From Elusimicrobiota bacterium (GTDB lineage: Bacteria; Elusimicrobiota; Elusimicrobia; Elusimicrobiales; UBA9959): a stretch of DNA of 20,549 bases. The stretch covers positions 1-20,549 of the forward strand of contig JBAXKK010000044.1 in assembly GCA_037137395.1 (NCBI GenBank), in the 5' to 3' direction. The translations under genes and the position numbers were made by a program. The notes under the pieces are model-generated. The model ran no database searches and had not been told where the DNA came from. It saw only the letters and a list, made by a program, of their open reading frames with translations. Each line of letters starts with the position of its first letter. Positions within the stretch are counted from its first letter, which is position 1. This document shows, one piece after another, positions 233-18,087 of the stretch.

Positions 233-1618
233 ATGGACAAACTGAAGATTCTGGTAGTTGAAGATGAAAATCCGGCACAGGCGGTCATGGCGGCCCAGTT
301 GACAGGCCATACAGTGGACTTCGCAAAAGATAAAAAGACCGCCCAGAAAAAACTGGCTGGCGGTTCTTATGATCTATGCTTCCTGGACTTAATGCTGGGA
401 CTTGATGATGATTATTCGGGTTTGAAACTTATCGCGGACGCCAGATCAAGAGGGTTTTACTCCGTGGTTATGACAAGCTCGGATTCAGACGATATCATAA
501 ATAAGGCCTATGAACTCGGCTGTGACGATTTCTATATCAAAGGCAACGAAAAAGCAAATATCAGCGCCGTCATCGCCAAATACCTGCAGCGCGGGACAAG
601 CGGGAACCTTAACAAAGTCTTCTCCGAGGAGTTTATAACCGAAGACCCGGCAACGCGCGCCAACGTCACCGAAGCGCTTAAATACGCGGCCTCCGGCTCC
701 CCCATCCTTATTCTTGGCCCGACCGGCACAGGCAAAACCTGCCTGGCCCGGATAATACACAAGCATTCAGGGCGCGCTGGTGAATTCGTTTCCATGAACT
801 GTTCGGCCTATACCGAGGACCTCATGGAAGCGGAACTCTTCGGCTACCGGAAAGGCGCATTCACCGGAGCCAATGAAACCAGAAAAGGCCGGTTGCTCCA
901 GGCCAGTAACGGAACCTTATTTCTGGACGAGATAGGCTCCATGAGCCTTAACATGCAGACCAAGCTGCTTAAAGCCATTGAGGAGAAATCCTTTTACCCA
1001 CTTGGCTCCGATAAACCGGAACATTCCGATTTCAGAATCATCAGCGCCACTTTGGAAGACCTGCAAGCACTTATAACGCAAGGCAAGCTCAGGTTGGACT
1101 TCTTTCAGCGCATACACGGGTTTACCGTAACTTTGAAACCGCTGCGGGAACGCAAAGATGATATTTTCCCCCTCATACGGCAATTCACGCGCGGCGCGAG
1201 GCAGCTTTCATTCGCGCCGGACGCCAAAACTTTCATGCTTCAGTATGAATGGCCTGGCAATATACGGGAATTGAAGAAGCTGGTAGACCTGCTTGTTTCG
1301 GGCGCGGAAAACCGCGTCACGCTTGAAGCCATCCGTAAGCACCTTTCACAGGAACTTAAGCCCCTGCCGCCCGGCGGCTTCCTTACGGACGCGCAGTATA
1401 AATATGCCGTGGAAAACGGCCTGGACAGCGCGTCTGAACTGTTTACCTACGAGATAATCCGCCGCAATATGCAGGAATACAACAGTAACAAAAGCAAGGT
1501 AATGACCAATCTTAAGATCTCCACTAACCTGCTTTATGCCAGGTTAAAGAAATTCGAGCCAAACAAGGGGACTGAATCAGATGGAATCAAATCTTGTGGA
1601 AAGAAAACTGCTTCATAA
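233..1618 (+). CDS. NtrC-family sigma-54-dependent response regulator (REC + AAA+ + C-terminal HTH)
   Basis: N-terminal REC (ILVVEDE, FLDLML); Walker A GPTGTGKT; ELFGYRKGAFTGA with intact GAFTGA loop; Walker B LFLDEIG; WPGNIREL; Fis-like C-terminal helices. SD GGAGGGG precedes the ATG. Confidence 0.95.
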   Translation: MDKLKILVVEDENPAQAVMAAQLTGHTVDFAKDKKTAQKKLAGGSYDLCFLDLMLGLDDDYSGLKLIADARSRGFYSVVMTSSDSDDIINKAYELGCDDFYIKGNEKANISAVIAKYLQRGTSGNLNKVFSEEFITEDPATRANVTEALKYAASGSPILILGPTGTGKTCLARIIHKHSGRAGEFVSMNCSAYTEDLMEAELFGYRKGAFTGANETRKGRLLQASNGTLFLDEIGSMSLNMQTKLLKAIEEKSFYPLGSDKPEHSDFRIISATLEDLQALITQGKLRLDFFQRIHGFTVTLKPLRERKDDIFPLIRQFTRGARQLSFAPDAKTFMLQYEWPGNIRELKKLVDLLVSGAENRVTLEAIRKHLSQELKPLPPGGFLTDAQYKYAVENGLDSASELFTYEIIRRNMQEYNSNKSKVMTNLKISTNLLYARLKKFEPNKGTESDGIKSCGKKTAS

Positions 1619-1772
1619 AATCCGTTCGCAATCCGCAAGCCTTAAAACCATTGCGGAAATGTTCAAGACCGGCACCGCTGAGAAAAAGCTGGAATTGCTT
1701 GCCCTTATGAAGGAAGCAGGGCAGGATATAATGGATTGCCTGTCCCGGCTTGAGAAGGATTTAAAAGCCTAA
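1581..1772 (+). CDS. 63-aa helical microprotein resembling a stand-alone HisKA/DHp domain
   Basis: SD-like AAGGGG upstream; overlaps the regulator's 3' end. LLHKIRSQ...EKK...DI...LEK parallels the kinase's VAHDIRSP...EKK...DI...LEK. Confidence 0.65.
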   Translation: MESNLVERKLLHKIRSQSASLKTIAEMFKTGTAEKKLELLALMKEAGQDIMDCLSRLEKDLKA

Positions 1773-3925
1773 CTCCAGGGCGGAGTTTTGTCTATCACTT
1801 TAAGCCAGGGTAAGTGAGCGAAATCTTCCGGCATGTGGCCGGTCTCAAGCGTTATATTGTTATAACCTTTATTGTGCAAATCCTGCGCGATATTCTCGCC
1901 TTTAACGCCGTCCTCCTCGTCGTCCAGCTCTGAATCAAGATAAATAGGCGTCTCTTTGGGGAATTCTTCTATCCGGGCGAGAAAATCGGTCGGATTGTCG
2001 AAGATAACGAGCTTTACGCCTTTTGCTTCCGCGACTAATTCCCAACTCATGCGGGCCACTTTATCATCATCCACTAAAATGGCGTCCACCTGGCCGGGGA
2101 CAGAAACAGCTTCCGGTTTTGCATCAGACTTTTGAATCGTTATCGGAACCAAGCTTGCCAGGCCCTTGTGTATCATCCGCACTTTTAAGCGTTTGCATTC
2201 GTCAATTATGCGCTTCTCTTCGCAGCGACTGGTGACCAGTATTGTTTTACCACACAGGTTTAATTCCTCGGCAAGGCTCAAGCCGGTTTCTTTATAACCT
2301 ACAAGCTCATAGTCAAAAAGACAAACGGCGGTTTGAGCTTCGGCCGCATTGTTTCTTATCCATTCGCGCAATTTGTCCGGCTCGCTGAAATGAATGGCTT
2401 CAATACCGTGCTCCTTAATTCTTGCCGATTCAAACCGGCCATCCCATACCTGATGAATAGTGGCGTCATCATCCAAGACTACCACAGGCCGGCCCGGAGG
2501 AAGCTTAAGCACAGCCACAAATCCTTCCGGCGCCGACGCTTTGGGCAGTTTTATCGTAACCGTCGTCCCTTTCCCCAGCTCTGACGTTATGTTTAGGTTG
2601 CCGCCCCAGCTTTCCGCCGTAGTCCGCGCATGATACAAACCTAAGCCCGAACCGCCGGCTTTGCCGTGCGTCTCACCCCTTTGGCCCAGTTTGGCCAGGA
2701 TTTCAAGCGGAATTCCTTTGCCGTTGTCGGTTACTGTTAAAACGACATTTCCCGCATCCTGGCCTAACTCCACAGACACCTTACCTTTATCGCCCAATAC
2801 TTCAACGGCATTATTCACCAAATTAGACACCATGCGTCTGAATTCAACCGGCTGTATCCTAGCGAATAGGCCGTAGGATTCCTGTGTTAACTCAAAATCG
2901 ATATTGATGCCGGGCTTTGATTCAAATTGCAGGCGTTTCTCGGTGATAACCGGATCTATTATGCTTGAAAGCAGGCGCGTTGCCGACGATTCTTTGTTTT
3001 CGGCCGCGGGAGAACCATCAATCGCGACAGTTTTGGCCTGTTGCCGGTTTTTTTCAAGCAGATTATTGGCGATATCGTGTATGCGGTTAACGGCATGACG
3101 CACCATAACACGCTTCTTTTCCGGCAACTCCGCCGTATCTTTAAGCGCCACGTCCAACGCCACCAGGGGAGAACGTATGTCATGCGCCACCTGCGCGGCC
3201 AAATCTGATGTGGCTTTTGAAACGGCCAGTTCGCTCTCGAACTGAGCAGCTTGGCTAAGCGCTACGCTCATGCGGTCCGTCATCTGCGCGAAAGGCGTGC
3301 CAATGATGCCAGCAGGCAAGCTGTTGATGTGTTTTTTTATGGAATCACGGATTATATTGCTTTGACCGGAGGATGTTATAGCGTTTATCTCGTTAACAGA
3401 TCGCTCTATGGCTAATAAAGTCTGTATAGCACCAAGATTAGAAATAGCAAGCAAACCTAGGAAGAATAGAACCACGGTGATGAATAGGACATAATTTTGA
3501 GCAAACACCGAGGCATTAACGTCAACCAGATCTATAACATATTCAAGCCGTCCCAGCTCCGCGCCATTGGAAACAAAAGGCATATTATGAGCCATCTGTA
3601 CGCGGGGCCGGTCATAGAGATTACCGATTACAGCTTCTTTAAATATCCATTTACTGCCTTCAAACCCAATGGGACGGAAAGTGATGCGCTTTATATTGTC
3701 GTTCTTTATGCGCCACATTATACGTTGGGTCTCAAAAACATCGCCCTCAAGAAAAGCTTTTTCAAAATAGGCCGCATTCTGCCGCATCGCAGTCAGAAGC
3801 TTGTCATCGGCCACCCGTACTGCCGAGAATACCGAGAATATCTGCCAGAAAGCTACAAACGCCAATACTGACACGGCATAATGCCGCCAGTTATAAGCAA
3901 GTATCCGCACAAAAAATTTTACCAT
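1769..3925 (-). CDS. Membrane hybrid sensor histidine kinase with two C-terminal receiver-like domains
   Basis: Two hydrophobic TM segments flanking a short extracytoplasmic region; H-box VAHDIRSPL; N-box NLVNNA; DNGKG; GSGLGL; REC-like VVVLDDD..LFDYEL and ILVDDD..YLDSEL. Confidence 0.93.
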   Translation of the reverse strand: MVKFFVRILAYNWRHYAVSVLAFVAFWQIFSVFSAVRVADDKLLTAMRQNAAYFEKAFLEGDVFETQRIMWRIKNDNIKRITFRPIGFEGSKWIFKEAVIGNLYDRPRVQMAHNMPFVSNGAELGRLEYVIDLVDVNASVFAQNYVLFITVVLFFLGLLAISNLGAIQTLLAIERSVNEINAITSSGQSNIIRDSIKKHINSLPAGIIGTPFAQMTDRMSVALSQAAQFESELAVSKATSDLAAQVAHDIRSPLVALDVALKDTAELPEKKRVMVRHAVNRIHDIANNLLEKNRQQAKTVAIDGSPAAENKESSATRLLSSIIDPVITEKRLQFESKPGINIDFELTQESYGLFARIQPVEFRRMVSNLVNNAVEVLGDKGKVSVELGQDAGNVVLTVTDNGKGIPLEILAKLGQRGETHGKAGGSGLGLYHARTTAESWGGNLNITSELGKGTTVTIKLPKASAPEGFVAVLKLPPGRPVVVLDDDATIHQVWDGRFESARIKEHGIEAIHFSEPDKLREWIRNNAAEAQTAVCLFDYELVGYKETGLSLAEELNLCGKTILVTSRCEEKRIIDECKRLKVRMIHKGLASLVPITIQKSDAKPEAVSVPGQVDAILVDDDKVARMSWELVAEAKGVKLVIFDNPTDFLARIEEFPKETPIYLDSELDDEEDGVKGENIAQDLHNKGYNNITLETGHMPEDFAHLPWLKVIDKTPPWS

Positions 3926-5394
3926 CTAAACTCCGCCACCTCGGGATATTCCGTAAATCCTTTCCCGACAATTAAATTTTTAATATTCTCCGGGTAATAG
4001 AATTTTTCCACTTCCTGGAAAAGCGGCAAAACAGCGTATCTTTTCCCCAGCCCATCGGCGATCCTTTCAGCCATCCCCGCCGCAACAGGCCCCTCTTCCT
4101 CTTTAACCATCTTTTCGAGCAAAGCGGTCAACTCCGGCATATTAAAATCCACCAGACTGTCCTTCACAAGAAAATCCCTGAAAAAAATGTCATATTCGGG
4201 CTGCACAACGCTGAAATTTATCAAAACCATATCATATGGGTGCGGGCGGACAAAAAGCGTTTTAACGAGTTCCTGCACCTCATATTGCTTTATCTTTATT
4301 CGTATCCCGGTCTTACTGTGAAATTTTGCGGCAAACGCTTCCAGCGGGACCCGGCTTTCTTTCCTCCAATTCGCTAATATGAACGGTTTTAGCGTTTTGG
4401 CTCTTTCCAGGTAGGAATTACGGCATTCCTGCTGAGGCCTGCCGGAGTGCCCGCCGGGAATACCCATAGGTAGGAGCGTTTGAATATCATACAACTGTTT
4501 GGAATTAGGAAAAGCCGCCTGCCTGAATCCAGAGATATCGAAACAGTTATACAGAATCTCCCTGGATGTTTTATCCGGACTCGTCAAGATCAACCCCGAG
4601 GATTTTAACGGGACACTTTCAAACGATAAGAACCGTTCGGAAACCGTTTCCGGCAATACGCCATAAGGAACCCGGTTGAAATCGCTTAAATCTTTTCTCT
4701 CAAGGTTCCCTGAGAAATCCACATACTCCCATAGGCTTATTCGTTCATAACCCTTAGCGACAGATTTCTTCCGCTTCAAGACAATCTCGTTTTTTCCGAT
4801 GTTTTCTACCGAGAAAGGCCCCAAGCCCAGTTCCACATTCTCGCTGACTCCGAGAGTCGGCGCATTGACATACCGGGTCAGAAAATTCAAATAGCCTGTT
4901 TTCTTTTTTTTAAAGCTGACATCAAGACATTCTCCGGAGCGCACAATAGAAAAGTCAGGGGAGTATCTCCGTGTTACCGTCAGCAGGTATGTTTCGAAGT
5001 AGTCCAGAGAAAAGTTTTGCTTTTCATCGAATTTTTGACCCGTATCGGGGCAAAACACATATTTTGAGGAATCGACGCTTCGGGACCATTTTTTAAGGAT
5101 TCGCGATGAAAAGTTTTCACCGTCGTCCATCCTGAACAACGGCTCATGCGTCTGCTTGAGTATATAGAAAACCGCGTCCTCGTCAGCCAATGATGTAGAC
5201 ACTTTTTTTGGCAACCCGGGAAGATAAACGCCCCAAACTGGTGCCCCGGCTGCGGCCGAAGAATGCCCCGCCATAACCGAAAACATAACCATACAGGCGA
5301 CATATGCCCACGTTTTATTTTTCACGCTACTGAAATATATCGGCATAGTTTTTGCGGCCAGCCACGGCCGGCAAGCAGCATAAAATCGTATCAA
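3919..5394 (-). CDS. Family-5 (OppA/DppA-like) extracellular solute-binding protein; start uncertain
   Basis: Signal-peptide-like N-terminus; HEPLF..D...S.ILKKW, GLGPF.V, L.R and C-terminal VLPLF motifs typical of SBP_bac_5. Overlaps the kinase start; no ABC permease/ATPase nearby. Confidence 0.7.
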   Translation of the reverse strand: MIRFYAACRPWLAAKTMPIYFSSVKNKTWAYVACMVMFSVMAGHSSAAAGAPVWGVYLPGLPKKVSTSLADEDAVFYILKQTHEPLFRMDDGENFSSRILKKWSRSVDSSKYVFCPDTGQKFDEKQNFSLDYFETYLLTVTRRYSPDFSIVRSGECLDVSFKKKKTGYLNFLTRYVNAPTLGVSENVELGLGPFSVENIGKNEIVLKRKKSVAKGYERISLWEYVDFSGNLERKDLSDFNRVPYGVLPETVSERFLSFESVPLKSSGLILTSPDKTSREILYNCFDISGFRQAAFPNSKQLYDIQTLLPMGIPGGHSGRPQQECRNSYLERAKTLKPFILANWRKESRVPLEAFAAKFHSKTGIRIKIKQYEVQELVKTLFVRPHPYDMVLINFSVVQPEYDIFFRDFLVKDSLVDFNMPELTALLEKMVKEEEGPVAAGMAERIADGLGKRYAVLPLFQEVEKFYYPENIKNLIVGKGFTEYPEVAEFRW

Positions 5395-7001: not shown

Positions 7002-7891
7002 AAACGCGTAACCTCTTGATTCTTTTTTGCCGAAGACAGTATCCCGGGGACGATATACTCGCATAACGCGCAGGGCGCGGAGTGTTCCCGAGACAAGCTG
7101 TCTTTTGATAGTCCGGCCATCCGTACAAGCTCGCCGAATGTGTGGCGGGAAACTAATTTATAGAACCGACTGCGCAAATGTGCCGCTATCGTCCGGTGCA
7201 CATACCTACTGTTCCCGGGCTTAGAAGCAAGAAAACCACAGCAGATGGTGAATCCGCGTCCGCAATTATAAACGAGCCGCCCGATATTCGGACATTTTTT
7301 CCGCAGCACCTTCGCCTCGAAAGCGGGGTATGAATAGTTAAGAGCGCTATACTTGGCGCGGCCTATAGGTAAAATCTTCTGGGTCGTAACGGGCACGCCT
7401 ACAAGCTTTAATTTGTTCAGGAAGATCAGGTCCAACGGCGCCTGTATGGCGCATACGAGGCCAAAAGAAAGGTTTAATTCGCGGCATGCTGCCTGCAGGT
7501 TATGGATACAGGTTTCGGGAACAAATTCCGCGTGGAATTTGTCATATGACATTTGCACACTGTTCAGCGCTTTAAAAGACTTGAGGGTTTTTACGGCCAA
7601 TGCAGGGGTAGAGGCAAAATAACCGTTCGTGATGATACTTATATGAATTTTATCCGTCCTATCTATTGAGGAAAGTATGCTGTTTATTTCTCCGGTAAAA
7701 AGAACCGGCTCCCCTCCCGTAAAGATCAGTTCCCGCGGCTTATTTCTATTTATCGCCGAAACCAGAAGCTCTATCTCTGATTTTGTAATTCTGCGGATGC
7801 CAAGATTTTTATCTACAAGACAATGTCGGCACCGAATATTACACGCGGTGCCGACTGTTATCCCCAGATCAAGCTTATGCTTAAGACTCAT
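6998..7891 (-). CDS. Short radical SAM protein with Cys-containing C-terminal (Twitch-like) region
   Basis: CNIRCRHC (CX3CX2C), FTGGEP, ITNG, SYDKFH; C-terminal CPN..C..CC..CALC. No N-terminal RRE. Confidence 0.9.
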   Translation of the reverse strand: MSLKHKLDLGITVGTACNIRCRHCLVDKNLGIRRITKSEIELLVSAINRNKPRELIFTGGEPVLFTGEINSILSSIDRTDKIHISIITNGYFASTPALAVKTLKSFKALNSVQMSYDKFHAEFVPETCIHNLQAACRELNLSFGLVCAIQAPLDLIFLNKLKLVGVPVTTQKILPIGRAKYSALNYSYPAFEAKVLRKKCPNIGRLVYNCGRGFTICCGFLASKPGNSRYVHRTIAAHLRSRFYKLVSRHTFGELVRMAGLSKDSLSREHSAPCALCEYIVPGILSSAKKNQEVTRL

Positions 7892-8073
7892 CCATGCTTC
7901 ACGACGCGAAGAGGCTCCGAGTCTCCAATTTCCTGAAGATCATTCGAAGCTAAAATACTGAGCTCCGTTTTTTGCACATCTGAAAGAGCCTTTACATACT
8001 GCATAGCATTGCACACGGAAAAAAGCCCCACTGAAACCAGGAAAGCCGCTATTACTTTATCTTTGTTTGTCAT
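7888..8073 (-). CDS. 61-aa small protein with signal-peptide-like N-terminus
   Basis: SD AAGGG; basic N-terminus, hydrophobic core and CNA cleavage-like site; ATGA-coupled to the rSAM gene. Confidence 0.7.
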   Translation of the reverse strand: MTNKDKVIAAFLVSVGLFSVCNAMQYVKALSDVQKTELSILASNDLQEIGDSEPLRVVKHG

Positions 8074-8095: not shown

Positions 8096-8124
8096 CATTC
8101 TGCCATTTTTACGGCTGCACTTCA
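8096..8124 (-). promoter_or_regulatory. Putative sigma-70 promoter overlapped by a degenerate -24/-12 variant site
   Basis: Minus strand TTGAAG-17 nt-CAGAAT with extended TG; overlapping CAGCCGTAAAAATGGCA (8101-8117). Confidence 0.4.
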
Positions 8125-8261: not shown

Positions 8262-8444
8262 TTATTTTTCCGCATAGAATAACTGCGAGCCGGGAAAGGT
8301 TCCGGCACACGCATATTGCGCCGAGATCGTGACCTGCTGTTTACCGACATCCACGGCGACCAGATGTTGTGGCCTTGATAGAACCGCCAGTATAAATATG
8401 GCTGATATACCCACCAACACCGCTTTAATTGTTCTCCGTTTCAT
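8262..8444 (-). CDS. 60-aa secreted-type peptide (candidate precursor or signal peptide, module C)
   Basis: SD GGAG 5 nt before ATG; directly downstream of the conserved promoter; MKRR plus hydrophobic stretch; single Cys in YACAG. Confidence 0.8.
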   Translation of the reverse strand: MKRRTIKAVLVGISAIFILAVLSRPQHLVAVDVGKQQVTISAQYACAGTFPGSQLFYAEK

Positions 8445-8466: not shown

Positions 8467-8501
8467 TGCCTACGCCTCGTACGGAGCAATTTTTATAGCA
8501 G
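8467..8501 (-). promoter_or_regulatory. Variant -24/-12 promoter, module C
   Basis: Minus strand CTGCTATAAAAATTGCTCCGTACGAGGCGTAGGCA; near-identical copies at 12042-12076 and 16803-16837. Confidence 0.8.
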
Positions 8502-8577
8502 ATATCAAATTTAATTGCCTTCATTGGGAAAATTCGAAAATCCGGGATGCAAAGAATTTAAAAACCAGACAAAAACG

Positions 8578-8610
8578 CTTCGTTTTGAGATAACTATTCT
8601 CATTTTGACA
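8578..8610. promoter_or_regulatory. Tandem palindromic enhancer (UAS) pair, module C
   Basis: cttcgttttgaga (8578-8590) and tctcattttgaca (8598-8610), 20 bp apart; spacer taactat identical to the module A pair. Confidence 0.75.
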
Positions 8611-8617
8611 AACCATA

Positions 8618-9331
8618 TCAATGCAAACTTGCGGCATCTCCTTTCTTGGAAAAGTATAAATACCGGTCAACTTGCTTAAAACCCAATGATTTATAGAGTC
8701 CAAGGGCAGCAGTGTTTGTTGCCCAGGTTTGGATAAAATAAGTTTTACCAGGGGCTTTTCTCAACAGATTAGCGAGAAACCATCGCCCGATTCCGGCGCC
8801 CCGGAATTCCTTAGCAATAAACAAATCAAATATCCCGATAAAACGCTTAAACCTCAGCAAATTAATTCTCCCGACCAGCGTTTTTCCTTTCAGCAGTCTT
8901 ATCGGCGAAAATGCCCCGACTGAAAAATCCCGGTTCAGGTCGTACTTATTATTTTCAATCCACCTTTGCGGCTTAGACTCCTCTATCCTCAAATCATCTA
9001 TGTCAGCATTATGACAGGCGGAATGCCCCAAGCGGCAGGAAGACGTATAAACCAATTGCACATCATCACAATCGCCTTTTTTAAATCCCATCCTTATCAA
9101 GCTCCGCGACAAAACTCCGGTTTTGTCATCGGATCGGCGAATCTTCACTATAGGATATTTCACAACCTCTGAAGGCCTGTGCTCCAGAAGGAAATAATTG
9201 AAATCCTCGGAAACATTATGCAGACTGGAAACAGTAATACCGGAGTCGGTTTTCACGAGTTTACAACCGATGTGTTTGAGCCACACCTCTTCAAGCTTAT
9301 AAATATTTTTCAACACGCTTTCATTGGACAT
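8618..9331 (-). CDS. GNAT-family N-acyltransferase
   Basis: C-terminal acetyl-CoA motif A (LFIAKEFRGAGIG) and N..ALGLYKSLGF. Confidence 0.88.
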   Translation of the reverse strand: MSNESVLKNIYKLEEVWLKHIGCKLVKTDSGITVSSLHNVSEDFNYFLLEHRPSEVVKYPIVKIRRSDDKTGVLSRSLIRMGFKKGDCDDVQLVYTSSCRLGHSACHNADIDDLRIEESKPQRWIENNKYDLNRDFSVGAFSPIRLLKGKTLVGRINLLRFKRFIGIFDLFIAKEFRGAGIGRWFLANLLRKAPGKTYFIQTWATNTAALGLYKSLGFKQVDRYLYFSKKGDAASLH

Positions 9332-10580
9332 CGGCGACTATCCCCCTGGTCTGTTTCCCGGAGATAAACCCCGCCAGAACTATCCCAATAATAGCCGTGA
9401 ATGTGATAATCCCGATATGAACACTATGGGAAAATATTTTCTCGCCAAAAAACATCCCGATGGGGGCGGCGATAAGCACAACCATATCCACGGCTCCGAG
9501 CATTCTGCCCCTTATCTGCGAAGGCAGGCTGGTGACGAAATAACTGTAATACGGCTGAGTGACAGAATCAGACAACCCATACAGGAAATAAGCCGCGATT
9601 ATTGTCGCGACCGGTGCGATCGGGACAAGGATCATAATCAATGAAACGGCCGTGCCAAATAGGCCATAGATAAAGCATTTCGAGACACGGTGGCCATATT
9701 TCCCCACAATCACGAGGCCCAATACCTCGCCTATGGCGATAGTGCTTCGAAGAATCCCGAGATACGCCGCCCCATAGCCAGAATTCTGCGCGAGCAAATA
9801 CGGGAACACATTCGGGATATATCCATATATCAGATTCAAAAGGAACACATTCCCGCAAAATACCAGGACGAATTTGTTTGACAATATATTTGACTCAACA
9901 AATCCCCATGATTGCCGCCAGACTGCGATGTCCAGATACTTTGCCAAATTAAATGCCGGATGCTGTTTATGCGTCTCTTCAGCCGGGATATCGTTTTTTA
10001 AGCTGTAAAAAACCGCCGCGGAAAACAGAAAACTCGCCGCATCCAGAACGACAGCCCAGTGCATAGGCAAAAAAGCCACCATAATACCGGCCACAGCCGC
10101 GCCAAAAAAATTTATCGTCCTGATACTGCCGGATATTAAAGCCTGTGCCTTGATAAAATCGCTTGGCTTAACATTATCGGCAAAAAAAGCGCTGAAAGCG
10201 TTGCCGAACAAAGAACCAAGGAAAGTTTTGGCTATAAAAAGGAAAATAAAGAATACCAGGTATCCGGACCCAAGGTTATTGAATAATACGAACAACGAAA
10301 CAACAAAGGCTGAGCCGATATCGGTAAGCATAACTATCTTTCGCCGGCTGAAACTATCGGTTATCTTGCCGGAAAAAACGGCGAACATGGACTTCAGCAC
10401 AAAAGAACCGCCAAGGGCGTACACGATGACTTTAAGGTCCTTAAATCTGGCATACATGGCCCAGGTGACGAAGATATCAAAAAATATATCTCCGAAGACG
10501 GACACAATTCTGGCCGTCCACAGCTTAAGGATTATCTTGTTTTCAATTAGCCGCAGCATATCGATATAGAATTTTATCAA
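9321..10580 (-). CDS. MFS exporter (macrolide-efflux/DHA3-like); start may be ATG 10559
   Basis: About 12 hydrophobic segments; motif A GKITDSFSRRK; LW.A..VS.FGD N-terminus; RGR.LG near the C-terminus. Confidence 0.9.
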   Translation of the reverse strand: MIKFYIDMLRLIENKIILKLWTARIVSVFGDIFFDIFVTWAMYARFKDLKVIVYALGGSFVLKSMFAVFSGKITDSFSRRKIVMLTDIGSAFVVSLFVLFNNLGSGYLVFFIFLFIAKTFLGSLFGNAFSAFFADNVKPSDFIKAQALISGSIRTINFFGAAVAGIMVAFLPMHWAVVLDAASFLFSAAVFYSLKNDIPAEETHKQHPAFNLAKYLDIAVWRQSWGFVESNILSNKFVLVFCGNVFLLNLIYGYIPNVFPYLLAQNSGYGAAYLGILRSTIAIGEVLGLVIVGKYGHRVSKCFIYGLFGTAVSLIMILVPIAPVATIIAAYFLYGLSDSVTQPYYSYFVTSLPSQIRGRMLGAVDMVVLIAAPIGMFFGEKIFSHSVHIGIITFTAIIGIVLAGFISGKQTRGIVADVQ

Positions 10581-11757
10581 AGAAATACCAGAGAAGTTCT
10601 TTATAATACACGCAACTGCCGCCGCAAAAAGATTTCTGCGCTCTAAAATGCCCGGCGCGGCAGCCTCCGCCGCAAAGGAATTTTATCTTGCATTTCCCGC
10701 ACCCGGCCATCTCATCCACAAACGGTAACGCCCCGCAACTGCTTTTCCCCGGAATGAACGCCTTCTGCGAATCTTCTGTTAAAAGGCTGCCCATGTTGAA
10801 TTCTTTATCGCAAAGCTTGACACATGGATAAACATCGCCCTTTGGGGACACCGTTATGCTGTTTATCCCGGCCCCGCAGTGAAGGATAGGAAAGCCAGGC
10901 TTTCCAAAAAACATATTGTCGGAAATTTTCACGATGTCAAAAACCCCGAGGATATTTTTTTCCTCGGCAAACAATTTATCCATCAGGCTTTTGATCTGCC
11001 GCAACTCCGGCTTGTGGACATTATTGGCCATATTATCCTTGACGATAAAAAAGCCGGCCGCGATCTTCCTGTTTTTGAAATGCCGGTAAAATCCGAAGGC
11101 GTGCCGGATATTCTCCTTTGTGATAGTCTGCATTACCTTAAGCGGAATACCCGCCGCTTTTATTTTTTGGATATTGGCAAATACTCTTTGAAAAGAACCC
11201 TCGCTTCTGGTGAGCGAATTAACTTTTTCCGTCAGGCCGTCAAGACTTACCTGGATTTTCACTTTATTCTTGGAGCAAAACGCCAGGAGCTTATCCGGCA
11301 GCATCGTCCCGTTTGTCACTATTACTATCTCTTCGAAGGATTTTTTTACCGCGCTTTCCAGGATTCCAAGCAGATTCGGATGGCAAAAGGGCTCTCCGCC
11401 TATTAAGGTTAAGGACTTCACTCCCAGCTTTGCCAGCGATGCGAGTATCTTCTCATTATCATCCATTGATACATGACTTTTTTCCGAAGCCATCGCATAA
11501 CAGTATTTGCACTTAAGGTTACAATGATATGTGATGTTATAATAAGCAATTTTTATCAGGGCATCATTCCTGGCATACTCTTTGACCTCATCAACCGTTT
11601 TAAGCGCTTTCTGCTTTCCAAGTCTGGCTACGGCATCCGTTATCTTGGACTCATCATCGACACATGCCATAAACCGGTTTACGGCATCAACAACCACCAT
11701 TCCTTTTTGGCCGCTTTTTGAGTAGATAAAATATTTGTCGTTATATCGTTTGAGCAT
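10543..11757 (-). CDS. Radical SAM/SPASM peptide maturase (module B)
   Basis: CNLKCKYC, IGGEP, SLDG; SPASM CGAG..GDVYPC..CGKC..LCGGGC..C..C. Start reassigned to ATG 11757 because the longer ORF overlaps the precursor and hairpin. Confidence 0.93.
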   Translation of the reverse strand: MLKRYNDKYFIYSKSGQKGMVVVDAVNRFMACVDDESKITDAVARLGKQKALKTVDEVKEYARNDALIKIAYYNITYHCNLKCKYCYAMASEKSHVSMDDNEKILASLAKLGVKSLTLIGGEPFCHPNLLGILESAVKKSFEEIVIVTNGTMLPDKLLAFCSKNKVKIQVSLDGLTEKVNSLTRSEGSFQRVFANIQKIKAAGIPLKVMQTITKENIRHAFGFYRHFKNRKIAAGFFIVKDNMANNVHKPELRQIKSLMDKLFAEEKNILGVFDIVKISDNMFFGKPGFPILHCGAGINSITVSPKGDVYPCVKLCDKEFNMGSLLTEDSQKAFIPGKSSCGALPFVDEMAGCGKCKIKFLCGGGCRAGHFRAQKSFCGGSCVYYKELLWYFFDKILYRYAAAN

Positions 11758-11764
11758 ATTTTCA

Positions 11765-11798
11765 GGCCTCGCATGGCGCTTCCATGCCATGCGAGGCC
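11765..11798 (-). other. 13-bp perfect inverted repeat between precursor and maturase
   Basis: ggcctcgcatggc-N8-gccatgcgaggcc; no U-tract. Confidence 0.85.
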
Positions 11799-11810
11799 CG
11801 TCCCCTTTCC

Positions 11811-12017
11811 TTACAGAAACATGCAATAGCCGCTGGATGATTCCTGCACGCTTTCCGCTTCCATCTCCATCTCGCACAAGTCGCCTTTTTTCTGGGCGCT
11901 GCACATAAAGAGATTGAATTCATCCTTCTTCTTGGCGCTGCAGGCAAAAAACTCCACCCCTTTAGAACTCCGTGATCCGCACACACCCTTTTCGCTGCTT
12001 AATACTTTTTTGGTCAT
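11811..12017 (-). CDS. 68-aa Cys-containing RiPP precursor (module B)
   Basis: SD AAGGAG; directly after the conserved promoter; Cys at 13, 26, 39, 48 and 65; immediately upstream of the rSAM/SPASM gene. Confidence 0.85.
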   Translation of the reverse strand: MTKKVLSSEKGVCGSRSSKGVEFFACSAKKKDEFNLFMCSAQKKGDLCEMEMEAESVQESSSGYCMFL

Positions 12018-12041
12018 AATTTTCTCCTTTTCAATTTTTGC

Positions 12042-12076
12042 TGCCTACGCCCTCTACGGAGCAATTTTTATGGCAG
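12042..12076 (-). promoter_or_regulatory. Variant -24/-12 promoter, module B
   Basis: Minus strand CTGCCATAAAAATTGCTCCGTAGAGGGCGTAGGCA. Confidence 0.8.
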
Positions 12077-12163
12077 GGAGGATAAACAAACGGTTTCATG
12101 CAGTCCCATTGGAGAAATGAATGCTTGATGATATTTCAGGGATTTAAGAACAAACAAAAAGCC

Positions 12164-12241
12164 TCTCATTTTGATGTAAGCATTTTCATTTTGAAAATCC
12201 TCTCAATGAAGATTCGGCACGATTGCTTTCTCAAAATGAAA
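12164..12241. promoter_or_regulatory. Tandem palindromic enhancer (UAS) pair plus a third inverted copy, module B
   Basis: tctcattttgatg (12164-12176), tttcattttgaaa (12184-12196), tctcaaaatgaaa (12229-12241). Confidence 0.75.
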
Positions 12242-12282
12242 AAGATTCTATTATCCGGTGCTCTCATAAGGCTTTTTAGGCG

Positions 12283-13785
12283 CTACTCCTTCACCAGCTC
12301 TGCTATGTACTGAATGGCATTTTTTCGTTTACAATCCCGGAATATACGCGATATTTTCCAACCGGTCCCTTTGATGAGTTTTCGCATCTCCGCCTCACTC
12401 AAGAAAATATATTCGCGCCATCTCTCCGCAAGATTACGGAAGCGGCAGCGCCCCACACTCATTCCATAGTGCCTGCCACGCGCCGGATTGCCCTTATGGT
12501 ACAGCATATAGGCGCTGAAATCCTGTCCCCGTTCCCGGGGATCACGCACTTTGTGCAGGTCTATGGTTTCGGCCAGTATCCTGCCTGTAGGAGAGGTTGC
12601 CTTATAAAGTTTTCTCAACCGGCGCCGCGCCCTGGCCCCATCGCTTACCAGACCGAAGTTGTTGCCCATCATTATGACGGTATCAAAACTCCCGGCTTTG
12701 AAAGCTGAACACACTTCGTCCAGCGAAACGTTCACGGCTTTCCGCAAACCGCGCCGCCGCGCCACTTCGGCGGCAAGCGGTGAAACATCAATCCCCGTAA
12801 CATCCAAGCCCCGCTTCTGCAGGAAAAGGCCATATCGCCCGGCGCCGCATCCGACGTCAAGAACGCGCCCCGTTGCCGACCTCAGCGCGAACAGCTTGTG
12901 TTTAGGCCATTCCTTTTCGCTGTTAAAATAAACCTCCTTCCCCCAGCCCTTAAGCAATAAACCGTTGTCCAGTTCTGTTATATCCGTATCAGAACCGCCG
13001 TCCAGCCACGACTTGAGCGCCGCGCCGAAGGCGTCGTTCATATCCCTCCGCCTGAGCGCGGTTTTCCTCAGCACCATTACATACTGCGGCCCGCCGGACT
13101 TTATCAAGCGCTCTATCTCCCAGCCGCTGTCCAGCAGCATTCCATTGAGCTCAGCGGTACTGACAAACACATACTCAAACCACGGCGTCGCCATATCCTC
13201 AAACCGGACCCGCAGGCGCATTTGCCCCGCCATACGCCCGCGCAGCCTGTTTCGCTGCTGGTATCGCAAGTGGTCCGGATTATCCGTCAGGTACGGATCC
13301 CCTGTCTCGGCGATCAGCCTTCCTCCCGGCGAAGTTATCCTGTACAACGCCGCAAGCCGCTCCCTGGCGGCCTTGGGCCCGCCCATCAGGCCGAAATTGT
13401 TGCCCATCATTACCACCGTGTCAAAGGAGCCGTCGGGAAAGCGCCCTATCTCGGAAAAACACATTTGCCTGGTTTTTCTAAGCCCTCGCTGCCTGCAGAC
13501 TTTCAGCGACAGCGGCGAACTATCCAAACCGGTAACATCTATTTTTTTACGCTGCAGGTAAAGGGCATGTCGGCCGGCGCCGCAGCCCACGTCCAGCACG
13601 CGGCCTCTTGCGAGGTTGATGGCTTTTTTTTCAAAAGCAGGCCAGTCCTGGTAGTCCTTAAAGTACACTCCACCTTCCGTCTCAATAAAACCGTCGTCGC
13701 GCTCAATAAACGAAACGGTCGTGCCCCCATTATGCTGATGCTGAAGCCACCTTCCGAAAGCGTCTCCGATCTTTGGTTGTTTCAT
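12283..13785 (-). CDS. Tandem two-domain class I SAM-dependent methyltransferase
   Basis: Two copies of DAFG...GRVLDVGCGAGR...DVTG.D.SPL...FDTV.MMGNNFGL. ATG 13785 has SD GAGG; extended -10 TGGTAGAAT at 13828-13836. Confidence 0.9.
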   Translation of the reverse strand: MKQPKIGDAFGRWLQHQHNGGTTVSFIERDDGFIETEGGVYFKDYQDWPAFEKKAINLARGRVLDVGCGAGRHALYLQRKKIDVTGLDSSPLSLKVCRQRGLRKTRQMCFSEIGRFPDGSFDTVVMMGNNFGLMGGPKAARERLAALYRITSPGGRLIAETGDPYLTDNPDHLRYQQRNRLRGRMAGQMRLRVRFEDMATPWFEYVFVSTAELNGMLLDSGWEIERLIKSGGPQYVMVLRKTALRRRDMNDAFGAALKSWLDGGSDTDITELDNGLLLKGWGKEVYFNSEKEWPKHKLFALRSATGRVLDVGCGAGRYGLFLQKRGLDVTGIDVSPLAAEVARRRGLRKAVNVSLDEVCSAFKAGSFDTVIMMGNNFGLVSDGARARRRLRKLYKATSPTGRILAETIDLHKVRDPRERGQDFSAYMLYHKGNPARGRHYGMSVGRCRFRNLAERWREYIFLSEAEMRKLIKGTGWKISRIFRDCKRKNAIQYIAELVKE

Positions 13786-13870
13786 GGTCACCTCAATTGA
13801 AACCTATGTCTCGCAAAGCTTTTAATAATTCTACCATCTTCCTTAGCGGGATCACCCGCGCGGGCATATT

Positions 13871-15175
13871 TCAAATACCGCCTTCAAACGCCGCCGGGTA
13901 TGTTTTTGCGAAATAGCCTTCTGCGTCGCTGTGTTTAAGCCTTAAAAATTCAGGAAAACCCGGGATCAATAGAACGGCCGGCGCTGACAGCAGGATAAGC
14001 CCGCCACCGGCCACAAGCGTCGCGCTCAGGCCTGCGAAAGATATAGCGCTTCCCGCCAGAATCACACCGGCGGGCACAAACATCTGGTTAAAGAACATTA
14101 CGAGCGACAAGACCCTTGAACGGTATTGGTCGGGGACCGCCAGCGTGTTCTGCGTCATAAGCGGGATGTTTATGATCACAAGACCGGCGCCTATAGCGAA
14201 CATTAGCAGGCATTTGGCGGCGGGCGGCGCCCCCGAGCCCAGCGTCAGCAACCCGGCGCCCATGACAGCGATGCCCGCCATGACCAATTGATCACCGTGA
14301 AATCTTCTTGCAAGTTCTCCCATAACCAAAGAGCCGGCGATAATCCCGGCGCTCACTCCGGATTTGAAAAGCCCCATAAGCCATACCGGCGTGGCGCCCG
14401 ACTCTTTGGCCAGCAGGGGAAAGGCTACGGTCATGGACGCGACCACAAAATTCAGAAAAGCGGCTAGTCCGCATATCCATAGCTGAAGAGGTATCCCGGC
14501 CACCAATTTGACGCCAGCTTTCAGTTCAGTCCGCCATACCGGGAAGCTGAACCGGTGATAGCACGCGCGCTGGCCGGAGTATCTCAGTCTGATAAACATA
14601 GTGGCGCCGGCGCCGGCGAAGTATGACAGCGCGTCACAAAAGAACGCTATTTTTATGCCGTATTTAGCGGAAACGAAGCCGCCCACTATTCCGCCGATAA
14701 TCGCCGCCGCCGCAGTCATGGAGTTGGTATGGCGGTATGCCTTCTGCAGGCTGTCAGGCCCCACCATCTGCGGAATTATGCTGTCCGCAACGCTTGAAAA
14801 AAGGGCGGAACCGGCCGAGGACAGGATAAAAAGCGTGATGAGGACCGGAAGACTGAACGAGTCCGTCCAAGCCAGCGCGCATAGCAATACGGAAAAAACG
14901 CCGCGCCAGATGTCGCTGATAATCGCCAGCCATTTCCTGGAATATTTATCTCCCAGCGGCCCGAAAAGAGGAAGGAGAAAAATGCGCACCAGGCTTACGG
15001 GGGCGAAAACAGCCGCTATCTGAACGGCCGAGCCTGTTTTTTCGGCTACCCACCACAGCACGGCTATCTCCGCGCAGGCGTCCCCCAAACCGGAAACAAA
15101 CTGCCCGGCCCGGAATAGCATAAAATCCGCCCCGCAGACGGAACGCGTCCCGCCGGAGCCGGAAGCGTCTTTCAT
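13871..15175 (-). CDS. MFS exporter (module A)
   Basis: About 12 TM segments; GQFVSGLGD; motif A GPLGDKYSRK; ATGA overlap with the rSAM stop. Confidence 0.9.
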   Translation of the reverse strand: MKDASGSGGTRSVCGADFMLFRAGQFVSGLGDACAEIAVLWWVAEKTGSAVQIAAVFAPVSLVRIFLLPLFGPLGDKYSRKWLAIISDIWRGVFSVLLCALAWTDSFSLPVLITLFILSSAGSALFSSVADSIIPQMVGPDSLQKAYRHTNSMTAAAAIIGGIVGGFVSAKYGIKIAFFCDALSYFAGAGATMFIRLRYSGQRACYHRFSFPVWRTELKAGVKLVAGIPLQLWICGLAAFLNFVVASMTVAFPLLAKESGATPVWLMGLFKSGVSAGIIAGSLVMGELARRFHGDQLVMAGIAVMGAGLLTLGSGAPPAAKCLLMFAIGAGLVIINIPLMTQNTLAVPDQYRSRVLSLVMFFNQMFVPAGVILAGSAISFAGLSATLVAGGGLILLSAPAVLLIPGFPEFLRLKHSDAEGYFAKTYPAAFEGGI

Positions 15176-16581
15176 AAAGAGCTCCCTGCGCCGGCTGGCT
15201 GGATGGCGGAAGCCTTATTTGCGGCGGCCCCGCGTCTCTTGTAATACAGATGCGTTTCAATCATCGCTTTTTCTATCGTGGCTTCGGTGTAGTAGCATTT
15301 TCCGGCTAAAAGCCGGTTTTCTCTATCCCTGGCACATCCACCCTGGCAGACGGGCAGGAATTTGCATGACATGCATTTGCTCTCTTTCGCGTCATAGATA
15401 TTTTCGTCCCACGCGCAGGTTTTATTAAAGCTCTCTATCGTCCCGTTTTCCAGCAATCTTCCGCATGCGGTGGAGGCATCGCCTATCAACGTGTCGCACT
15501 TGAAAACAAGCCCGTCGGCGCCTATTATCCACGAGTTCTTTTTCTGGGCGGAACACCAGCCCCCTATCGGATCCGGCACCGGCGCCGTTATCCTGCTCCT
15601 GGTATCCAGCTTGCCCAGCTTGTTGGCCGCGTTCAGGTAATAGTCCACCTGCTTTGAAAGCCCGTCCTCCATGCCGTAGATATCGCTTGCGATGGGCTGG
15701 ATATCGTCCCGGGAGGTGTCCATATTGGAAACCGCCCTGAAATATATTGAAAAACGCGGGTCCGACCCGAAAACCTTTTCATAATCCTCAAGCAACTCCC
15801 GGATCTCCGTATCCTGGCCTTTCATAAAGTTGACACGGATCTTAAAGGTAAAGCGCGCGCCCGCCCCGGCAGTTCGCTGGATGCCGCAGAGGTTCTTCCA
15901 GATAGTGTCAAAAGTCCCGCCCCCGTTGCGCAGAGATCGGACCTTGTCATGTGTTTTCCTGTTGCCGTCAAGTGTAACCTGGAAGAACGTGATACCGGAG
16001 TTAAGGTATTCCAGGAAAACCGGTGCGGACAACAAATAGCCGTTGGTGTATATTCCCGATGAGAACTTTATGCCGCTCCGGCCCAGCAGAAGACCGCGCA
16101 CTTCGCCCATGAACGTCAGAATGCCGTCTTTTTCCAGCGTGGGCTCCCCGCCGAACCAGTTTATCGCAAGCCCCTCCACACCGTTTATTTTCCCCGCGAT
16201 CAGGGCTAACGCCGCTTTATAGACCTCTTTTTTCATGGACATGCCCCTGCGATCGTATATAAAACAATAAGGGCACCTGAAATTACAGTTTTCAGACGGA
16301 AGCAGGGTCAGCCGGAGCTCCTTTTCACTGCGCGTAAAATCCATATATCTTTTTTTCACCTGCGCCGCTTCGTCAAAGCCGGCTTCAATCAGGAATCCCT
16401 GCTTACGCAGGTCATCTGCAAGCGGGGCATCCGAAGCGACATTGACCGAAGACAGCAGTTTGTCGCATTCGCACACGCGTTCACCCGAAAACGCCAGGAA
16501 AGCGCCGGTTCTTGTATTATAAAGAAGCAGGGAACCGTCTTCCGCACAGGTCTTGAATGTATATTTAGATATGTTAAGCAT
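15172..16581 (-). CDS. Radical SAM/SPASM peptide maturase with N-terminal RRE-like region (module A)
   Basis: SKY..LLLYNTRTG..L...GFL N-terminus; CNFRCPYC; WFGGEP; VTLDG; SPASM C..FKC..CMSCKFLPVCQGGC..C. Start reassigned to ATG 16581 (GGAG upstream). Confidence 0.93.
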   Translation of the reverse strand: MLNISKYTFKTCAEDGSLLLYNTRTGAFLAFSGERVCECDKLLSSVNVASDAPLADDLRKQGFLIEAGFDEAAQVKKRYMDFTRSEKELRLTLLPSENCNFRCPYCFIYDRRGMSMKKEVYKAALALIAGKINGVEGLAINWFGGEPTLEKDGILTFMGEVRGLLLGRSGIKFSSGIYTNGYLLSAPVFLEYLNSGITFFQVTLDGNRKTHDKVRSLRNGGGTFDTIWKNLCGIQRTAGAGARFTFKIRVNFMKGQDTEIRELLEDYEKVFGSDPRFSIYFRAVSNMDTSRDDIQPIASDIYGMEDGLSKQVDYYLNAANKLGKLDTRSRITAPVPDPIGGWCSAQKKNSWIIGADGLVFKCDTLIGDASTACGRLLENGTIESFNKTCAWDENIYDAKESKCMSCKFLPVCQGGCARDRENRLLAGKCYYTEATIEKAMIETHLYYKRRGAAANKASAIQPAGAGSSL

Positions 16582-16633
16582 AAGATTGCACGCTCCAGTG
16601 TCCTGTAATATGTAAATTACCGTTAAATTTGTC

Positions 16634-16666
16634 GGCAGCCGGGGCTGATATATTTCCCCGGCCGCC
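16634..16666 (-). other. 11-bp GC-rich stem-loop between precursor and maturase
   Basis: Transcript GGCGGCCGGGG-N11-CCCCGGCUGCC (one G-U pair), 5 nt after the precursor stop. Confidence 0.8.
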
Positions 16667-16671
16667 ACTTA

Positions 16672-16767
16672 CTATCTTACGCAGCATAGCCCGCAAACCC
16701 CTGCGCCATGATCCATCTCCTGCGCTTCCAGTTCTGTCTCCGAAACAGCAATTTTGTAAACTTCCAT
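16672..16767 (-). CDS. 31-aa RiPP precursor MEVYKIAVSETELEAQEMDHGAGVCGLCCVR (module A; not in ORF track)
   Basis: Translated by hand; SD GGAGG 8 nt before ATG; TAG at 16672-16674; acidic leader and Cys-rich C-terminus; lies between the promoter and the rSAM gene. Confidence 0.88.
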   Translation of the reverse strand: MEVYKIAVSETELEAQEMDHGAGVCGLCCVR

Positions 16768-16802
16768 TTTTAATTCCTCCGTTAGTTTTTGCAGTTTTTT
16801 TC

Positions 16803-16837
16803 TGCTTACACCCACTACGGAGCAATTTTCATGGCAG
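16803..16837 (-). promoter_or_regulatory. Variant -24/-12 promoter, module A
   Basis: Minus strand CTGCCATGAAAATTGCTCCGTAGTGGGTGTAAGCA. Confidence 0.8.
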
Positions 16838-16924: not shown

Positions 16925-16957
16925 TCTCATTTCGAGATAACTATTTTCATTTTGAAA
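16925..16957. promoter_or_regulatory. Tandem palindromic enhancer (UAS) pair, module A
   Basis: tctcatttcgaga (16925-16937) and tttcattttgaaa (16945-16957), 20 bp apart. Confidence 0.75.
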
Positions 16958-16971
16958 GCCAACAGCGGGTC

Positions 16972-18030
16972 TTATAGATTGTTGGAAATATTCTTGGACA
17001 ATGATAAATCTTTGCGGTATTGCGCTACGGACTGGCGGGATAATTCTACGCCGTGACGGATTTTAAGCTCGGCGCGCAGCTTAGTGTTGTTCATATCGGG
17101 ATTTTCAACGGCTATGGCGTATAGCCGCTCTAAATTTATGGCTTTGGAACTGGGCAACAGAACCGACATAGGCGCTTCAGTGCCCCAGGGCATTTGTATG
17201 GATTTATTTGAAATAAGCCGATTAAGAACGCTGGGGTGGACTTCAAGTTCTGCGGCCAAAACTTTCTGCGGCAACGGCGCTCTGCGCACAGGTTCTCCGG
17301 TTAACAGGTAATCAGCCTGCCGCTCCATAACTATTTCTAGCGCGCGGTAAAGCGTGGATTTTCGCTTATCCGCCAGTTCCATGCGCCTTACGAGATTTTC
17401 CACGGCGGTTTGTTCAGAGGCAGGGAGACATTTCAACGCTTCTGAAAGTTTTTCCCCATCCACTTTATAACAGCCTTTCCATATTTCCCGATGAAAAAAC
17501 GCCAGGACAGGTTTACCGTTTTCAAGCTCTATGCCGGCCACGGCGCTGAACACTGTTGACGCTGGAGCTTCAGGTGCGCTTTCAAATTCAGCCTGTATGA
17601 ACGCGCGGTTAACGAAATCACGCAGGCGGGCGGCATCTTTGACGGTTATATCGCATTCCTCGGCGCGTTCCACATCGCTCATTACCGCGTCTTTCAGGAA
17701 GCAGGCTTCAAACTTTTCCTGGCCTATGCCTTGCATCAGACCAACCAGATCGCCTTTGCCGTCGGCCAGTTCCGGCAAGTCGCCAGCCGACATTTTAAGA
17801 CCGTAGCCGGCGTATTTCTTTGCGGCGTAACGAGCATTTGGGAATTCCGCCAGCCTGACAGCACCGGATGCTTTCAGTAATTGAAAAAAACGATTATCTT
17901 CTATTTTCTTGAGAAAACTCTCAAACTCTTCCTCAGACATCTCGGCCATCTGCGCTAACTTCATTGCGCCCATTGCCGCCGCTTTTGTTCTTGCGGAATG
18001 GCTAAAACCGAATTTATGGAATTTGCTCAT
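16972..18030 (-). CDS. Short divergent sigma-54 (RpoN-like) factor, ~352 aa
   Basis: Region I-like MKLAQMAEMSEEEFESFLKKIEDN; DBD RKSTL..IV..Q....G...PL....A.EL.VHPSVLNR...K....PWG; RpoN-box-like LSRQSVAQYRKDL. Start at ATG 18030 (SD AGGTGAGG). Confidence 0.85.
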   Translation of the reverse strand: MSKFHKFGFSHSARTKAAAMGAMKLAQMAEMSEEEFESFLKKIEDNRFFQLLKASGAVRLAEFPNARYAAKKYAGYGLKMSAGDLPELADGKGDLVGLMQGIGQEKFEACFLKDAVMSDVERAEECDITVKDAARLRDFVNRAFIQAEFESAPEAPASTVFSAVAGIELENGKPVLAFFHREIWKGCYKVDGEKLSEALKCLPASEQTAVENLVRRMELADKRKSTLYRALEIVMERQADYLLTGEPVRRAPLPQKVLAAELEVHPSVLNRLISNKSIQMPWGTEAPMSVLLPSSKAINLERLYAIAVENPDMNNTKLRAELKIRHGVELSRQSVAQYRKDLSLSKNISNNL

Positions 18031-18046
18031 AGCCTCACCTACGCAT

Positions 18047-18087
18047 ATTATAGCCGTTATGCAAAAATGGGGCAATTTTTACGGCAG
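18047..18087 (-). promoter_or_regulatory. Sigma-70 promoter of the sigma-54 paralog, overlapped by a variant -24/-12 site
   Basis: TTGCCC (18070-18075)-17 nt-TATAAT (18047-18052); CTGCCGTAAAAATTGCC at 18071-18087. Confidence 0.65.

Follow-up and report, generated by a model that had tools for sequence, protein, structure and literature searches.

A repeated −24/−12 motif of sigma-54 promoter type with GC at −24, and a linked compact sigma-54-like factor carrying Gln at the Arg456 position, in an Elusimicrobiota peptide island

Why are three small-peptide genes, whose products are mostly dissimilar, preceded by nearly the same 35 bp in one stretch of Elusimicrobiota DNA? The stretch analysed (the window) is the entire 20,549-bp contig JBAXKK010000044.1, and all coordinates count from its first letter; the host genome bin (G000) comprises 2.70 Mb and is 98.9% complete. 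Labels with G denote genomes, C contigs, L loci from relatives and P homologous proteins. The three minus-strand copies that the original prediction had placed before peptide genes were all found (Table 1). They end 22, 24 and 35 nt before an ATG, in agreement with the predicted spacing of 22–35 nt, and each ATG is preceded by GGAG, in keeping with the good Shine-Dalgarno sequence of the prediction. Pairwise identity among the copies is 28–31 of 35 positions, and 28 of the 35 columns are invariant. The 15-nt core gave four exact matches and one with two mismatches in the window, against 0.54 expected from shuffled sequences at up to two mismatches, and none of 100 shuffles yielded five. With a 35-bp weight matrix trained on nine sites from outside the window, the three copies scored 51–59 bits, and no other site in the 2.70-Mb genome exceeded 10.8 bits. 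The two-mismatch match at 8102–8116 was rejected, its core not being retained in the related loci L049 and L090.

The consensus of sigma-54 promoters is TGGCAC-N5-TTGC, and the repeated motif, TGCCAT-N5-TTGC, has the same −24/−12 layout with C replacing the second G. All four exact window copies contain TG-N9-TTGC, at a spacing equal to that of the TGGCA relatives, and the canonical form TGGCAT-N5-TTGC sits at equivalent places in related loci. The GG that defines a sigma-54 promoter at −24 is absent from all four copies, which have GC instead (hereafter GG for the TGGCA form and GC for the TGCCA form). Published promoter elements are given as CTGGC and GC (PMC9770992). Each of the three copies has, 90–121 bp upstream, members of a second repeat family (D1), which takes the palindromic form TYTCR-N3-YGARA. 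The palindromes of promoter C lie about one helical turn nearer the core than those of A and B; they were read by eye from the flanking sequence, the strict palindrome pattern giving them no score. Such a position falls in the range of about 80–150 bp at which an enhancer would be expected, and the same contig encodes a GAFTGA activator, the only strong PF00158 match in the host genome, which would bind these palindromes. The conservation past −12 through the predicted start site, also claimed originally, is pronounced in 12 GC targets but slight among 56 GG targets, which points to common descent as at least part of its origin.

Could the repeat instead be the operator of some other regulator, a leftover of duplication or a site at which cassettes are joined? 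The absence of the GG that is called invariant speaks for this, as does the exchange of cassettes just downstream of the motif; on the other hand, the canonical TGGCA form occupies the same places in relatives, and each −24 base tracks its own arginine in the RpoN box of the linked sigma factor (see below). We give this account next to no credence. Very probably, the motif serves the island's own sigma factor as a promoter of the sigma-54 type. The idea of a promoter and a shared regulon is supported, and the sigma-54 layout, the GG-to-GC change, the cognate sigma factor and the activator, none of which had been given, can be added to it.

The sigma factor in question is a compact sigma-54-like protein of 352 aa, with a PF04552 (Sigma54_DBD) score of 45.7 bits against a cut-off of 22.8. 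It is encoded by the one gene with a sigma-54 DNA-binding domain found in the host genome. Its RpoN box, SRQSVAQYR, aligns with ARRTVAKYR of the solved sigma-54, so that Arg455 (E. coli numbering, used throughout for the two key positions) is retained and Gln333 takes the place of Arg456. These two arginines are described as invariant readers of the −24 element that are required for binding (PMC9770992, PMC7175178). Equivalents of H377, S379 and R383, whose roles are described in PMC9770992, are also retained. In a Foldseek search with the predicted model (pLDDT 73), the top 25 matches (E up to 0.001) were all sigma-54, and VIA-align placed model residues 14–352 on residues 11–477 of 8F1K (Z 14.3, root mean square deviation 5.8, 231 residues). 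The aligned part covers Region I and the DNA-binding half, model residue 14 meeting residue 11 of the closed-complex structures, and the model suggests that the folds of Region I, of the ELH-HTH and of the RpoN domain are kept.

Residues 455 and 456 are abbreviated below as a pair (RR, RQ and so on). The exact GC pattern was found in 4 of 80 family genomes (three sites in G000, four in G004, two each in G185 and G226) and the exact GG pattern in 45 of 80, with no site in G000. All 56 close-clade sigma boxes were read; five are RQ and belong to exactly the four GC-pattern genomes, and 51 are RR. No RQ box appeared among the 40 distant matches fetched out of 55, one of which was cut off. G004, G185 and G226, representing three genera, each carry an RR paralog and GG sites as well. 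Among 119 close proteins the readable boxes comprised 115 RR and 4 RQ, and in the tree RQ forms one clade of seven sequences (support 1.0) nested in RR, so RQ is derived and arose in one event.

When the −24 bases were left free, the search gave 291 raw sites (about 12 in a shuffled-sequence control), or 152 non-redundant ones, with 22 small loci given their box by contig; the class-level sample consisted of 35 close and 5 distant places fetched, plus 15 further loci. At RR loci, 109 of 115 sites were GG. At RQ loci (n = 18) there were 16 GC, one GA and one TT. Where position 455 is Cys, Ser, Ala or Leu (n = 19), the sites comprised 11 AG, three TG, one CG, two GG, one GA and one TT, so that the first G alone is altered at 15 of 19. 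Loss of Arg455 is therefore associated with a substitution of the first G, as loss of Arg456 is with one of the second. The same exchange can be followed on a single module: cassette B, at 87–93% protein identity, stands behind TGGCAT under an RR sigma factor (L070) and behind TGCCAT under RQ sigma factors (window, L049, L193). Taken together, these comparisons make it likely that the compact sigma factor with Gln at the Arg456 equivalent has co-evolved a preference for GC promoters. The motif shares its contig with the one sigma-54 found in the genome and with its one strong activator match, which also counts in favour of this reading.

Several facts weigh against it. The RQ/GC clade has a single origin and its promoters share ancestry (in the enhancer region, promoters A and B are homologous copies with 35 of 50 nt identical), so the 16 GC sites do not count as separate tests. 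C is not dictated by Gln, since the single linked site of L254, a lineage that became RQ independently, is GA; the RR locus L093 has a GA site too, and two of the 19 sites at Arg455-variant loci retain GG. L197 (G185) pairs an activator of the RQ/GC clade with a GG promoter that carries an N3 palindrome. In E. coli, R456Q was built by Liu et al. and is outside the seven mutants without GG activation (PMC12096077), so R456Q may still read GG. On the protein side, the TIGR02395 equivalog score is 42.7 bits against a cut-off of 277.35 and a core-binding domain was recognised neither by sequence nor by fold search; the host genome bin is, moreover, 7.7% contaminated.

Several of these points would suit a relaxed factor, in which the Arg-to-Gln change merely removes a base contact, the sigma reads G followed by any base, and GC has arisen by drift and promoter copying, with neither preference nor insulation. 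The single origin, the homologous promoter regions, the GA of L254, the mixture of AG, TG, CG and GG after loss of Arg455, the GG promoter of L197 and the absence of R456Q from the E. coli mutants without GG activation are all compatible with it. Drift does not readily explain why the linked true sites of the clade are GC in 16 of 16 cases and ancestral GG in none, the more so as these include the site at the sigma gene itself, which has flanks bearing no relation to those of the target promoters. Nor does it explain why cassette B, at 91–93% protein identity between the window and L070, went from G to C while core and tail stayed nearly identical. Engineered changes of R456 likewise give new preferences, not none: E. 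coli R456Y, R456M, R456W and R456F prefer GC, R456H prefers GA and R456L GT (PMC12096077). We consider the relaxed factor unlikely and prefer a co-evolved preference for GC.

The fourth core lies upstream of the sigma gene itself and has no downstream tail. It overlaps a sigma-70-like promoter of that gene, TTGCCC-17-TATAAT (18075–18070 and 18052–18047), for which a start at about 18040 is predicted. A TATAAT 16–19 nt past the core was found at 36 of 42 sigma-proximal sites and at none of 56 other sites, and no enhancer palindrome was seen upstream of the four GC sigma-proximal sites, the window's fourth site included, whereas the GG counterparts have them. Since it overlaps a promoter of the sigma-70 type and has no enhancer, the fourth site would be expected to damp rather than activate the sigma gene.

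This overlap also fits the idea that the protein binds the −24/−12 site as an adaptor or repressor and, lacking the usual domain for core binding, does not function as a sigma factor. A Pfam search of 99 family members recognised no core-binding or activator-interaction domain in any of them. The middle segment, residues 55–167 (113 aa), folded alone with pLDDT 61, gave a best fold match of Z 5.1, and matched sigma-54 residues 201–293 at Z 4.0 (root mean square deviation 8.6, 78 aligned), at rank 37 among unrelated helical folds; as it matches nothing clearly, binding to core RNA polymerase stays putative. Set against this, Region I of the model is included in the structural alignment to 8F1K (overall Z 14.3), GAFTGA is preserved in the activator, for which no alternative sigma-54 turned up in the genome, and the target promoters have phased upstream palindromes and no TATAAT (0/56). 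An adaptor or repressor appears very unlikely.

How might such a system work? The kinase would phosphorylate the NtrC-type activator, perhaps via a 63-aa protein encoded between them. The activator would then bind the palindromes 90–121 bp upstream, loop to the closed complex of sigma factor and RNA polymerase and open it about 12 nt past TTGC, so that three peptide-maturation operons would be switched on together. Operon C encodes a binding protein and the kinase and could close a positive, possibly peptide-sensing loop, while the fourth site would damp sigma synthesis. By origin, a single Arg-to-Gln change in a GG-reading ancestor would have been accompanied by a G-to-C change of all island promoters, including those of cassettes acquired from GG islands.

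Table 1. Features of the 20,549-bp window (predicted +1 positions are inferred from standard sigma-54 numbering)
Feature	Coordinates	Strand	Remarks
NtrC-type enhancer-binding protein	233..1618	plus	Receiver, AAA+ with GAFTGA, helix-turn-helix
63-aa protein	1581..1772	plus	Atlas look-alikes 0.96–0.97; HisKA on 12% of one cluster
Sensor histidine kinase	1769..3925	minus	Last gene downstream of promoter C
Family-5 (peptide-type) solute-binding protein, likely	3919..5346	minus	Atlas 0.98, SBP_bac_5
Cassette C serine hydrolase	5403–7064	minus	Followed by binding protein and kinase
Cassette C radical SAM enzyme	6998–7891	minus	
Cassette C 61-aa open reading frame	7888–8073	minus	
Cassette C peptide	8262..8444	minus	60 aa, hydrophobic signal-like N-terminus; conserved in L049 and L090
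Promoter C	8467..8501	minus	Core TGCTATAAAAATTGC at 8486–8500; predicted +1 8473–8474
Putative enhancer of promoter C, likely	8578..8610	minus	Two imperfect palindromes from 110 and 90 bp upstream
Cassette B GNAT	8618–9331	minus	
Cassette B MFS	9321–10580	minus	
Cassette B radical SAM/SPASM enzyme	10543–11790	minus	
Cassette B precursor	11811..12017	minus	68-aa Cys-containing peptide
Promoter B	12042..12076	minus	Core TGCCATAAAAATTGC at 12061–12075; predicted +1 12048–12049
Putative enhancer of promoter B, likely	12164..12241	minus	Palindromes from 166 and 121 bp upstream, imperfect one at 101
Cassette A tandem methyltransferase	12283–13785	minus	Duplicated methyltransferase domains in one 500-aa protein (12283–13791)
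Cassette A MFS exporter	13871–15175	minus	
Cassette A radical SAM/SPASM enzyme	15172–16581	minus	After the 31-aa precursor
Cassette A precursor	16672..16767	minus	31-aa Cys-rich peptide
Promoter A	16803..16837	minus	Core TGCCATGAAAATTGC at 16822–16836; GC at −24, conserved tail; predicted +1 16809–16810
Putative enhancer (upstream activating sequence) of promoter A, likely	16925..16957	minus	Two N3 palindromes, starts 121 and 101 bp upstream of core
Compact sigma-54-like factor	16972..18030	minus	352 aa; RpoN box SRQSVAQYR at 17014–17040; Q333 codon 17032–17034
Fourth core	18072–18086 (copy 18070–18087; site 18047..18087)	minus	TGCCGTAAAAATTGC; upstream of sigma-54-like gene, without downstream tail

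Cassettes A and B each combine a short precursor, a radical SAM/SPASM maturase and an exporter, and can on this gene content be classed as candidate clusters for peptides that are ribosomally synthesized and then post-translationally modified (RiPPs). No named maturase family cut-off was reached, the best being TIGR04463 (190 against 525). The activator gene converges on the kinase gene, and the gene for the 63-aa protein, which is also found in L197, overlaps the end of the activator gene. This small protein is possibly a stand-alone HisKA-like phosphotransfer domain, which we note as a lead, and a possible role is that of a phosphorelay or inhibitor between kinase and activator. The binding protein gave no Pfam, NCBIfam or PDB sequence match. 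The gene content as a whole would possibly fit a loop in which an exported peptide is sensed by the linked kinase. In relatives a promoter faces away from the activator gene, and positions 1–232 of the window show palindrome remnants only.

The further suggestion that different modules were recruited into one regulon agrees with the swapping of cassettes behind a fixed promoter. The slot after the sigma gene holds a radical-SAM precursor in the window, a 30-aa precursor with an 884-aa enzyme in L090 and other precursors of 31 and 41 aa in L092, and L049 differs as well. The motif was also expected to find further members of the regulon. It does so in relatives, but nothing convincing was found off the window contig in the host genome: the exact GC pattern has three matches there, all within the window, and off-contig maxima of the weight-matrix scan were 22.5 bits (core) and 10.8 bits (35 bp), with no enhancer evidence at those sites.

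The palindromes differ between the two promoter types, the 13 GC targets having 20 N3 spacers, one N4 and no N2, and the 96 GG sites 92 N2 and three N3. N3-like palindromes are already present in the nearest RR relatives (L070), so the change of the enhancer probably preceded that to GC. The activator of the RQ/GC clade (92% identical in L090) has the recognition helix STNLLYARL, against STRLLYAT. At the class level, the tree shows further independent changes of the RpoN box among relatives, and one RP lineage has a GT candidate, TGTCAG-N5-TTGA, at the usual position facing away from the activator (one site). For RW (L260), a poor GT-like candidate was all that was found nearby, with no match to the pattern across the genome (G278), and no clear linked site was found for the QR and PR variants (L086, L238). 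These data allow a wider view, which we put forward tentatively and rate a little below an even chance. The compact sigma-54s of Elusimicrobiota may have rewritten the −24 code repeatedly (RR for GG, RQ for GC or GA, RP for GT, and loss of Arg455 for AG, TG or CG), and the RQ/GC island may be a private orthogonal channel, with its own activator and a differently spaced enhancer, that moves between genera and operates in one cell alongside GG systems.

The island is like canonical RpoN/NtrC systems in its −24/−12 spacing, TTGC, palindromes about 100 bp upstream, kinase, and GAFTGA activator with receiver. It differs in the GC at −24, the Gln at Arg456 and a 352-aa sigma factor without recognisable core-binding domain; moreover, canonical RpoN serves a global regulon, whereas here sigma factor, activator and targets stand together on one island. 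RpoN1 and RpoN2 of Rhodobacter sphaeroides and Bradyrhizobium japonicum are naturally occurring paralogs, each with a promoter consensus and activators of its own; in G004, G185 and G226, RQ/GC and RR/GG systems likewise occur together. Those paralogs differ at −11 or −12 only (PMC3162934), while the change in the island concerns −24 and the RpoN box. The engineered orthogonal E. coli sigma-54 variants R456H, R456Y and R456L are altered at the same residue and the same base as in the island (PMC12096077); the island is, however, natural, has Gln, whose preferred promoter that study did not screen, and a divergent scaffold. Its precursor, maturase and exporter cassettes also recall RiPP clusters. 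Radical SAM/SPASM clusters of this kind are known with peptide-sensing feedback of agr-like logic. The island likewise has a kinase, a regulator and a binding protein of the peptide type under one type of promoter, and departs from these clusters in that the output would run via a sigma-54-like factor and no maturase family cut-off was reached.

In PMC12096077, Arg456 is called 100% conserved, with no other residue known there, and it is asked why evolution never tried other sigma-54 codes; the available excerpt of PMC12316311 does not mention Elusimicrobia. A natural non-Arg RpoN box, a natural −24 variant or an Elusimicrobiota sigma-54 was not found in the literature searched, outside which most subscription papers lie. 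The island and its relatives would be exceptions found in nature at both arginines, with the matching G altered in each case. From them a natural map of residues to bases could be drawn for the RpoN box, synthetic biology could gain new candidates for orthogonal parts, and they warn that promoter scans based on GG overlook such regulons. The idea is directly testable, because an E. coli R456Q plasmid and reporter system exist.

Some further observations concern the sigma family. RQ or QQ proteins are P0136, P0137 and P0128, and RH proteins are P0180 and P0203, the predicted partner of RH being GA. In L138 (G028:C226), a minus-strand open reading frame fragment ending RQSIVQYRR lies near an RR sigma gene in another family, suggesting that the RQ module arrived there. 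Another clade of compact sigma-54-like genes, L158–L192, is distant (24–31% identity) and usually lies near a distant activator, some members having Thr, Gly or Val at 455. In L232–L262 the −12 element varies (TTGC, TTGT, TTGA), and so does the His377 equivalent (H, D, E, S, T, L), which may add a third axis of covariation. The host genome also holds an RR-type sigma-54-like remnant (G000:C24:14940–15100), in which the start is joined to the RpoN-box end and most of the gene and its promoter are gone; an intact counterpart is found in G001:C89. The first 345 residues of P0121 (914 aa) and P0122 (839 aa) match the compact sigma family, and these may be fusions or read-through products.

Two related loci show additional cassettes. 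On a 14-kb contig, L092 (G185:C45) carries two RQ sigma copies (2348–3406 and 11743–12801); behind each come a GC promoter and a precursor, which differs between the two. At 1758–6326 of L090, a GC promoter heads tandem 30-aa Ser/Cys precursors and the 884-aa enzyme, an arrangement that we take to resemble a lanthipeptide cassette; a second precursor at this locus has three FxSGFNRAPELE repeats. In the window itself, a gene for a trypsin-like protease contains a 54-nt tandem repeat (19431–19538) in its C-terminal portion.

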